A stretch of DNA of 62,079 nt from an uncultured Pseudomonadota bacterium (GCA_964388745.1 CAYMBP010000002.1:20854-82932), one strand, 5' to 3'. Numbered from the stretch's first letter, positions 28,846 to 29,745 are shown. Numbers and translations: made by a program. The notes: generated by a model not told the origin, from the letters alone.

Positions 28846-29745
28846 ATGTTGAAAAATAGACAAAGATTCTTTTTCATTGTACTGATATCTGGCAGCATTG
28901 TACACTCTATCTCAATTTTGGCAATGCAGACAAAAGAAGAGATTAAAGTTACAACCGACGCTGAAGAACAACAGATACTTGAACTTACCCTTGCTCTTTC
29001 AGCTAATAAGGACCAACTTTACACATGTAATAATAATCAAGCACAAATTGTTTCAATCTATAACGCAATTGCCAAAAAAATAGAAAAACTCAAAACGCTT
29101 TATGGAAAAGAAAAGACCCTCCACCTTCTTAATGGAAAGGATATATCCTTCAATAACCTGGAAACTGCACAAGAAATGCTTGTACACCTGACAAGACTTA
29201 TATCACTTCATCACGAAGAGACTAAAACGAAAAAAAGAGATGAGCAAATCATAGCAAAAATAGCACAACAAATAAATGGCGTACCATTTGCTAAGTCTTC
29301 AGAACCGGAGCAACAGCATATTTATAATAACCCATCAAGAGCTCTTCCCGTGAAAACAAAAAATCAACTCCTAGCATCTCTAACCAAAGAGACGCCACGA
29401 GTTTACTTCTCTAAAAATGGAATTTTAACAGGAAGCGTTTTTAATACAAAAAGAGAGAGCTCCTGTCCAATTAGTACCGAAAAATTTAAGCATAATATGA
29501 AAATTGCCCACCTTGAGTGTGGACACACCCTCTCTTTTAAGAGTTTTAATGAACTCTTAACCCAACAAAAAAGAAAAATGAATGCAGCTTCTTATCATCA
29601 ACAAAAGAGCAAAAAGCAAACCTCTTCTCGACATTGTCCCATCTGCCTTCATTCGTTTGACAAAATGAAGAATGTTTACATTGGAAGACTCCCTGCAGCT
29701 GCAACTCTACCACAAAAAGTAATACTTAAAGCAGACAATCTATAA
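28846..29745 (+). CDS. Secreted protein with a C-terminal SP-RING/U-box-like (one-zinc-site RING) module
   Basis: The N-terminal hydrophobic segment is FFFIVLISGSIVHSISILA. The C-terminal module is CPIS-x14-CGH-x36-HCPIC (aa 207-267, nt 29464-29646), with FKSFNELL after the CxH. Confidence 0.6.
   Translation: MLKNRQRFFFIVLISGSIVHSISILAMQTKEEIKVTTDAEEQQILELTLALSANKDQLYTCNNNQAQIVSIYNAIAKKIEKLKTLYGKEKTLHLLNGKDISFNNLETAQEMLVHLTRLISLHHEETKTKKRDEQIIAKIAQQINGVPFAKSSEPEQQHIYNNPSRALPVKTKNQLLASLTKETPRVYFSKNGILTGSVFNTKRESSCPISTEKFKHNMKIAHLECGHTLSFKSFNELLTQQKRKMNAASYHQQKSKKQTSSRHCPICLHSFDKMKNVYIGRLPAAATLPQKVILKADNL

Follow-up and report, generated by a model that had tools for sequence, protein, structure and literature searches.

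The question raised by this locus is whether a bacterial gene that combines an export leader with a eukaryote-like RING finger encodes an effector directed at the ubiquitin system of a host. The gene lies at 28846..29745 on the plus strand of a 62,079-nucleotide stretch of DNA from an uncultured Pseudomonadota bacterium (GCA_964388745.1 CAYMBP010000002.1:20854-82932), the whole of which we call the window. It is an open reading frame (ORF) running from ATG to stop, with 299 residues plus the stop codon. From its sequence we tentatively read the product as a Sec-exported, host-directed effector resembling RING-type E3 ligases, with a confidence that falls just short of even. Two parts of this reading can be stated with more assurance: the module at the C-terminal end likely belongs to the RING superfamily, and the protein is likely exported. 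The gene and its parts are the following, with the source of each assignment in brackets:

28846..29745, plus strand: whole gene, with leader, predicted helical region, RING-like module and tail (ORF list, codon score, metagenome runs)
28846..28923, plus strand: predicted export leader, residues 1-26 (hydropathy)
28924..29445, plus strand: N-terminal region, residues 27-200, no known family (profile and structure searches)
29464..29658, plus strand: RING-like module, residues 207-271, in the register of RING-H2 (Pfam, alignment A1 as described below, hhalign)
29518..29526, plus strand: C225-G-H227, holding ligands C3 and H4 of zinc site 2, aligned to the CGH of RING-H2 repeats, Pirh2, TRIM5 and NSE2
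29560..29631, plus strand: basic, Lys/Gln-rich insertion T239-R262 of 24 residues in the C6-C7 loop (gap in A1; RING scores rise on its removal)
29635..29646, plus strand: C264-P-I-C267, holding ligands C7 and C8 of zinc site 2 and followed by L268, aligned to the CPLCMHS of Pirh2
29659..29742, plus strand: C-terminal tail, residues 272-299, no known family (translation)

Scored against the codon frequencies of the conserved genes in the window, the annotated frame gives +0.107 bits per codon and the other five frames give -0.34 to -0.92, and the score behaves alike in both halves of the gene. The guanine-plus-cytosine (GC) content by codon position (0.45/0.32/0.29) is similar to that of native genes. 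At the local composition, an open frame of 299 codons would arise by chance with a probability of about 1e-9. Furthermore, the locus is covered by contigs of four independent runs, all from one aquatic-metagenome study, and these are identical in sequence; the low word share of run X4 is explained by low coverage. Because of the codon score, the native GC by codon position together with the improbability of a chance ORF, and the four identical runs, the target is a real gene. A recent horizontal transfer was rejected on the native codon usage and the native codon-position GC. A scan of the plus strand for sigma-70 promoters and terminators gave nothing useful.

The RING-like module

The cysteines of the target protein are found at positions 61, 207, 225, 264 and 267, and the module reads C207-P-I-S210 ... 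C225-G-H227-T-L-S230-F-K-S233 ... C264-P-I-C267. As a reference we took the canonical RING-H2 repeats found in P0002, a protein described below, and call the resulting alignment A1. The register in A1 is exact, with C1 at C207, C2 replaced by S210, C3 at C225, H4 at H227, H5 replaced by S230, C6 replaced by S233, C7 at C264 and C8 at C267. Five of the eight cross-brace ligands of RING (C-x2-C ... C-x-H-x2-[CH]-x2-C ... C-x2-C) are therefore present. The ligand set of zinc site 2 is complete (C225, H227, C264, C267). In zinc site 1, C207 alone is kept, and S210, S230 and S233 stand in place of the other three ligands. On these residues the module would be a degenerate one-zinc variant and not a canonical RING.

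The insertion corresponds to a 20-column gap relative to RING-H2 in A1 and makes the C6-C7 loop 30 residues long. It contains the string KRK-x9-KSKK, which resembles a bipartite nuclear localisation signal (NLS). We dropped this string as meaningful evidence, as 9 of 49 window proteins carry one. The positions that contact the E2 enzyme are, by alignment, occupied by suitable residues, namely I209, L237 (at the position of the RING-H2 Trp) and P265. Many active RINGs carry a linchpin Arg directly after C8; by alignment, the residue there is L268 in the target and Met in Pirh2.

An earlier note on this DNA, made from the sequence without database searches, had proposed a RING-superfamily module with one zinc site. 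Its ORF and quoted residues are confirmed by the sequence, and the Pfam model zf-RING_UBOX, alignment A1 and the loop-removed searches agree with the module. The loss of the first site also stands; the description of this loss as a missing Cys pair does not, given that Ser replaces C2, H/C5 and C6 while C1 is kept. Two measurements have to be changed. The Lys/Gln-rich insert, given as 27 residues, has 24 (T239-R262), and the module is not the C-terminal 60 residues of the protein, as 28 further residues come after it.

Among the Pfam models, zf-RING_UBOX (Pfam: PF13445) is passed only marginally by the native protein (25.4 bits, cutoff 25.2; E 1.4e-5), and zf-RING_2 (Pfam: PF13639) reaches 22.3 bits against a cutoff of 27.3. 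When the loop insertion was shortened in the query, which was done for searches only, the score of every RING model rose. zf-RING_UBOX then gives 30.9 bits and is covered over all of its 39 positions, zf-RING_2 gives 26.7 bits (just under 27.3) and Rtf2 gives 21.1 bits. That both halves score together without the loop is as expected of a true bipartite match.

Comparison of the module with the RING-H2 repeats by hhalign gave an E-value of 3.8e-5 and a probability of 71%. A hidden Markov model (HMM) built from the RING-H2 repeats alone, run over 3,737 six-frame segments from the window and 26 related loci, matches only the target ORF (E 1.9e-5). Moreover, when the protein sequence was shuffled 200,000 times, the ligand arrangement came up in just 0.06% of cases. 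With the loop-removed query, the closest solved structure is the RING-H2 domain of Pirh2/RCHY1, which aligns end to end with an E-value of 0.0034 and with CPLCMHS facing the CPICLHS of the target. The next solved relatives are TRIM5 (E 0.024) and the SP-RING of NSE2 (E 0.032), in which CPIT and CGHT match.

The assignment of the module to the SP-RING or U-box type, as proposed earlier, is not borne out by these searches. The SP-RING model zf-Nse (Pfam: PF11789) scores 16.9 bits with the native protein and 19.4 bits after loop removal against a cutoff of 27. zf-MIZ (Pfam: PF02891) has no match with the native protein and 18.7 bits after loop removal against a cutoff of 33.5. RING, RING-H2 and Pirh2 score better than both. 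The U-box model (Pfam: PF04564) has no match even at E-values up to 10, native or loop-removed, and U-box membership was rejected on this result together with the complete ligand set of zinc site 2. The one-zinc ligand pattern of SP-RING (C-x-H ... C-x(2-4)-C with the first site gone) is present in the module; it also fits any conventional RING that is degenerate at zinc site 1 and so does not discriminate SP-RING. In residues 1-200, Pfam and PDB searches found no match to PINIT/SAP or to Nse2-type Smc5-binding helices. In sequence, conventional RING or RING-H2 fingers are nearest to the module, and its ligand set is equivalent to that of the one-zinc variants.

The earlier note also held that bacteria have no ubiquitin or SUMO system. 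This is overstated, as Pfam holds prokaryotic RING families, though it has no bearing on the present locus. The target matches none of these: Prok-RING_4 (Pfam: PF14447) reaches 12.3 bits where the cutoff is 27, and Prok-RING_1 (Pfam: PF14446) has no match on the real sequence. Genes for E1, E2, JAB, ubiquitin-like (Ubl) or defence proteins were not found in the window (PADLOC gives nothing), so an endogenous bacterial conjugation system is unlikely. With the Prok-RING models unmatched as well, we rejected a bacterial ubiquitin-like or defence system.

There are no detectable relatives of the target. A word-indexed search of 5.8 billion proteins returned no orthologue with the full-length protein, with the module alone or with the module plus RING-H2 profile. 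Scans of genome, metagenome and viral contig collections for orthologues were empty, and no paralogue was found within the window. An exhaustive phmmer search of 1.84 billion representatives returned only the target itself and P0002. The latter was rejected as an orthologue, since it has eukaryote-type tandem RING-H2 domains and its E-value comes from eight repeats that match the first half of the module. P0002 is 745 residues long, has about nine near-identical tandem RING-H2 copies, several of them with broken ligands, and probably represents a eukaryotic or mis-assembled gene model.

Export leader, flanking regions and genomic setting

By hydropathy the leader consists of a basic n-region (K3, R5, R7) and a hydrophobic core (F8-A26), after which a polar region follows. 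Signal peptidase would probably cut at ILA|MQ, after A26. The export signal that had been claimed for the protein is thus found in K3/R5/R7 and F8-A26, in the same design as the leader of an ankyrin protein in the window. About 17 of the 49 larger window ORFs have a single N-terminal hydrophobic leader. The tripartite layout of the target leader and its ending in a small residue followed by Met are also present on the ankyrin protein (40855-42036) and on others, including orphans of the window.

The leader ending is an observation in its own right. In its strict form it occurs in 6 of the 17 window leaders compared to a background of 2.7% (P ~4e-6). Window proteins with such endings are encoded at 25290-26915, 28846-29745, 36562-37572, 37586-38368, 38413-39756, 40855-42036 and 55797-56789. 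They are also found in related metagenome-assembled genomes (MAGs), at 11161-14173 (minus strand) in L003 and at 16169-18384 (plus strand) in L002. Examples are SAYS|MQSENE, SILA|MQTKEE, SLASA|MNNGNN and NIQA|MNLFQQ, and NSIAA|MEKPNN in L003. Three origins of the ending may be considered: a signal-peptidase site specific to the lineage, an original start codon that was kept after a leader had been gained by extension at the 5' end, or a second, internal start that leads to exported and cytoplasmic isoforms.

The N-terminal 200 residues had been described as helical and of unknown family. The second half of this description holds, with zero matches of residues 1-200 in Pfam, NCBIfam, PDB and PADLOC. 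Helices are predicted for residues 39-143 and not beyond, coil being predicted for residues 144-200, and the AlphaFold helices have a low confidence with a predicted local distance difference test score (pLDDT) of only 46-67. Another helix is modelled with low confidence at about residues 265-278, near the start of the C-terminal tail.

Around the target gene, the following neighbours were annotated:

27095..28657, minus strand: uvrC, upstream and divergent
29892..31103, plus strand: M23 peptidase, downstream after a gap of 146 base pairs
31100..32326, minus strand: type II/IV secretion ATPase (Pfam T2SSE, E 1.2e-121), 1.4 kb downstream

The remaining neighbours are housekeeping genes. The target shares no operon with its neighbours, uvrC being divergent and the 146-base-pair gap separating it from the M23 gene. 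The T2SSE ATPase is a candidate part of the sole outer-membrane export route expected here, and its link to the target is presumed. Relatives of this ATPase with 51-52% identity are found in four MAGs (L001-L004), one of which is a complete chromosome of 1.37 Mb. In these four genomes the ATPase gene is preceded by the same conserved gene for a small membrane protein as in the window, and ankyrin proteins and leader-bearing orphans are again present. The four MAGs hold no counterpart of the target, and the target neighbourhood is not conserved in them.

The window ATPase is short with 408 residues and seems to be without the usual N-terminal domain. The small membrane protein encoded directly upstream of it has about 132 residues and is found at 32333-32731 (minus strand) in the window, at 9566-9964 in L002 and at 8902-9351 in L003. 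In L003 the gene for this protein and that for the ATPase are separated by an ORF of 206 residues (9367-9987).

The window has a GC content of 33-40% and encodes the leader-bearing ankyrin-repeat protein (40855..42036), a TPR protein and many orphans. From gene content and literature, the organism is probably an obligate intracellular parasite similar to Dependentiae/TM6, because the leader-rich orphans and the ankyrin profile match published descriptions. In Chromulinavorax, 44% of the coding sequences have signal peptides, with an enrichment among ORFans, and 78% of the ankyrin proteins carry a signal peptide (PMC6561590).

Proposed function and competing explanations

In the function that we propose, Sec would take the protein via the leader (residues 1-26), which would be cut after A26, and the type II secretion system would free it from the periplasm into the host compartment. 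There, the RING-H2-derived finger would fold on one zinc held by C225, H227, C264 and C267. The old site 1 (C207, S210, S230, S233) may be held by hydrogen bonds instead of a metal ion, in the manner of SP-RING and U-box domains. The surface of I209, L237 and P265 would then dock a host E2~ubiquitin or, less likely, E2~SUMO. The helical region (residues 27-200), which presumably sets substrate or localisation, would pick the substrate or the place of action. For the target we infer cleavage and secretion as well as the fold, the binding of zinc and of an E2, and the ligase activity. A host-directed effector, as the earlier note had suggested, appears a reasonable reading on the basis of genome style and literature. 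SP-RING and U-box domains are active ligases without zinc site 1. Because these domains work without site 1, and Pirh2 likewise shows no Arg after C8 in the alignment, the loss of site 1 is compatible with activity in principle.

Several points weigh against this proposal. Three of the four ligands are lost at the zinc site beneath the E2-binding loop and the linchpin is Leu, and for these two reasons the activity of the module could be weak or absent. Two RINGs of Simkania negevensis in which the ligands of zinc site 1 are lost, SNE_A08690 and SNE_A19470, were not assayed (PMC12591485). The target is an orphan, so selection on the ligands has no support from homologues. Moreover, the native zf-RING_UBOX match covers the first half of the module only (26 of 39 model positions). 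AlphaFold reached a pLDDT of 39 for the full-length protein (single sequence, no deep alignment) and of 49.6 for the module with A1, and a Foldseek search of the low-confidence model against the PDB gave nothing significant, with a best E-value of 1.8 and TM-scores of at most 0.25. The route through Sec and the periplasm exposes the zinc-binding thiols to oxidation, a type II system alone does not cross the membrane of the host vacuole, and the leader could be an uncleaved signal or membrane anchor. Finally, a search for RNA runs found none, and the intracellular lifestyle of the organism is itself deduced from gene content and published descriptions only.

Several of these points would also fit a finger that is RING-derived and catalytically dead. 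Such a finger would transfer no ubiquitin and would serve purely for binding, be it to trap an E2, to inhibit, to act as a scaffold or to mislead a host RING partner as a decoy. We consider this explanation unlikely, though a weak or dead ligase has to be taken seriously as a rival. It would account for the loss of three of the four ligands of zinc site 1, for the Leu at the linchpin and for the marginal scores of the RING models, and it would suit an orphan gene that is probably fast-evolving. However, it is established that RING relatives with a single zinc or none, such as SP-RING and U-box, are active ligases. The hydrophobic E2-contact positions are retained in the target, and Pirh2 likewise does without the Arg.

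The likeness to RING spans non-ligand positions and both halves of the module in register, and thus goes beyond the Cys/His knuckles. This argues against a bacterial envelope protein, anchored in the inner membrane or periplasmic, in which the CxH...CPxC knuckles are a small metal or redox motif with a bacterial role. Such a protein would be consistent with the hydrophobic stretch of 19 residues, which could be a signal anchor, and with neighbours that are envelope or housekeeping genes, including those for the M23 peptidase and the T2SSE ATPase. The knuckles alone also match Zn-ribbon-type models weakly. However, no bacterial family is matched and the target is not in an operon with these neighbours, so that we regard this explanation as quite unlikely.

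A further explanation is that the Cys/His spacing is fortuitous and that the protein is a fast-evolving, lineage-specific orphan with no RING fold. The orphan status, the Pfam score of just 0.2 bits over the cutoff, and the lack of a confident model and of a significant structural match all point in this direction. Three E-values speak against chance, that of Pfam (1.4e-5), that of hhalign (3.8e-5) and that of the independent RING-H2 profile (1.9e-5), as do the shuffle frequency of 6e-4 and the climb of the scores on loop removal, as for a true bipartite match. In addition, RING or U-box E3s make up 17 of the 25 neighbours listed by Foldseek, none of them significant. The order of elements in the low-confidence model (beta 222-224, beta 230-232, helix 233-249) fits the beta-beta-alpha core of RING. 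A chance resemblance is therefore improbable, to a somewhat greater degree than an envelope role.

Very unlikely is a true SP-RING ligase for SUMO or another Ubl protein, which would dock host Ubc9~SUMO, possibly in the nucleus. Its ligand pattern is that of the target (CPI[ST], CGHT, terminal CPxC), human NSE2 aligns with an E-value of 0.032, zf-Nse and zf-MIZ are among the weak matches, and the loop insertion has the NLS-like basic string. Babela has Ulp1-like desumoylating enzymes, which suggests that SUMO is a target in such bacteria. However, zf-Nse and zf-MIZ remain far under their cutoffs, with generic RING, RING-H2 and Pirh2 scoring higher, and the N-terminus is without features of the PINIT/SAP or Smc5-binding type. 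NLS-like strings are moreover common in the window (9 of 49 proteins). The same ambiguity arose for Simkania SNE_A19470, which was first picked up by SP-RING profiles and which its authors settled on as a degenerate conventional RING (PMC12591485).

The least credible proposal is a one-zinc SP-RING ligase for SUMO or Ubl that is exported by Sec and type II secretion and bound for the host nucleus through the NLS-like insertion. We know of no bacterial SP-RING-type SUMO ligase that has been described.

Relation to known proteins and further observations in the window

A 2025 paper on Simkania describes the knowledge of bacterial RING-class E3 mimics as limited, and SneRING (SNE_A12920) of S. 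negevensis is an experimentally active bacterial RING E3 (PMC12591485). Like the Simkania RINGs, the target combines a eukaryote-type finger with a domain of unknown function, in their case in an obligate intracellular bacterium that infects amoebae. It shares the degeneracy of zinc site 1 with SNE_A08690 and SNE_A19470, and the SP-RING ambiguity with the latter. No sequence relationship to the Simkania RINGs was detectable by exhaustive phmmer. In SneRING the RING is N-terminal and its activity has been shown, whereas the RING of the target is C-terminal behind a Sec leader and known from sequence alone. Furthermore, Simkania is known to have type III secretion, whereas the target genome shows signs of a Sec/type II route only.

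Another comparison is Babela massiliensis (TM6), a reduced intracellular parasite of protists with signal-peptide-bearing ankyrin and eukaryote-like proteins and with no secretion system other than type II (PMC4378268). In Babela, a single predicted RING finger protein was named as a potential E3, next to F-box, deubiquitinase and Ulp1-like proteins, and its enzymes related to ubiquitin and SUMO include secreted ones (PMC4378268). The presumed lifestyle, the leader-bearing ankyrin proteins and the predicted RING protein are shared with the source of the window. However, the RING protein of Babela is no detectable homologue of the target, and the membership of the source in Dependentiae is itself presumed.

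Among eukaryotic domains, the RING-H2 of Pirh2/RCHY1 (PDB: 2jrj, 2ecm) has the same register as the target, CP[IL]C...CGH...CP[IL]C[LM]HS, and likewise no Arg after C8. It differs in having two zincs and eight ligands, where the target has Ser at C2, H5 and C6 and a C6-C7 loop of 30 residues. The SP-RINGs of Nse2/Mms21 and PIAS/Siz share with the target the C3-H4...C7-C8 ligand set, the lost first site and the CPI[ST] and CGHT of human NSE2. In contrast to these, the target scores well under the cutoffs of the SP-RING profiles, and the partner domains at the N-terminus are absent. Zinc-free bacterial mimics of RING-class E3s that use host E2s are NleG, LubX, GobX, RavN and the C-terminal domain of AvrPtoB (PMC12591485). 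These effectors of the U-box type reach the host by type III or IV secretion and lack zinc sites altogether; the target has a complete zinc site 2 and a Sec leader.

The target would be a sequence-unique member of an already known kind of eukaryote-like effector, and no new mechanism is indicated. If it is active, it would join the few known bacterial mimics of RING-class E3s as a one-zinc RING ligase exported by Sec and type II secretion, and it would give a handle on the manipulation of host ubiquitin by Dependentiae-like parasites of protists. The protein is well suited to show whether a RING-H2 finger minus three of the four ligands of zinc site 1 can still activate an E2, and the same question applies to the two degenerate RINGs of Simkania. 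The gain would be incremental, as eukaryote-like RING, U-box and F-box proteins of amoeba-associated bacteria are an already established theme.

There are further leader-bearing proteins in the window. A leader-bearing orphan at 25290-26915 (plus strand), just upstream of uvrC, has an exact tandem duplication of 60 residues (residues 171-230 and 240-299), the copies of which are found at nucleotides 25800-25979 and 26007-26186. The duplication is followed by a long Glu/Lys/Gln-rich stretch that is probably a coiled-coil. Two pairs of adjacent leader-bearing orphans on the plus strand are diverged paralogues, namely 5825-6529 with 6685-7632 and 36562-37572 with 37586-38368. Their identities are 24% (E 1e-12) and 28% (E 1e-5), respectively, and no member matches a known family. 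This indicates local duplication and fast divergence of putative exported proteins.

The thymidylate-synthase-like protein at 55797-56789 (plus strand) matches the Pfam family Thymidylat_synt with an E-value of 6.8e-19 over part of the model. It has an N-terminal export-type leader, which is odd in an enzyme of nucleotide metabolism. In this otherwise reduced-looking genome, a LexA-like repressor with HTH and Peptidase_S24 domains is encoded at 1003-1689 (plus strand). The presence of this gene and of uvrC implies that at least part of a repair set of the SOS and nucleotide excision repair type is retained.

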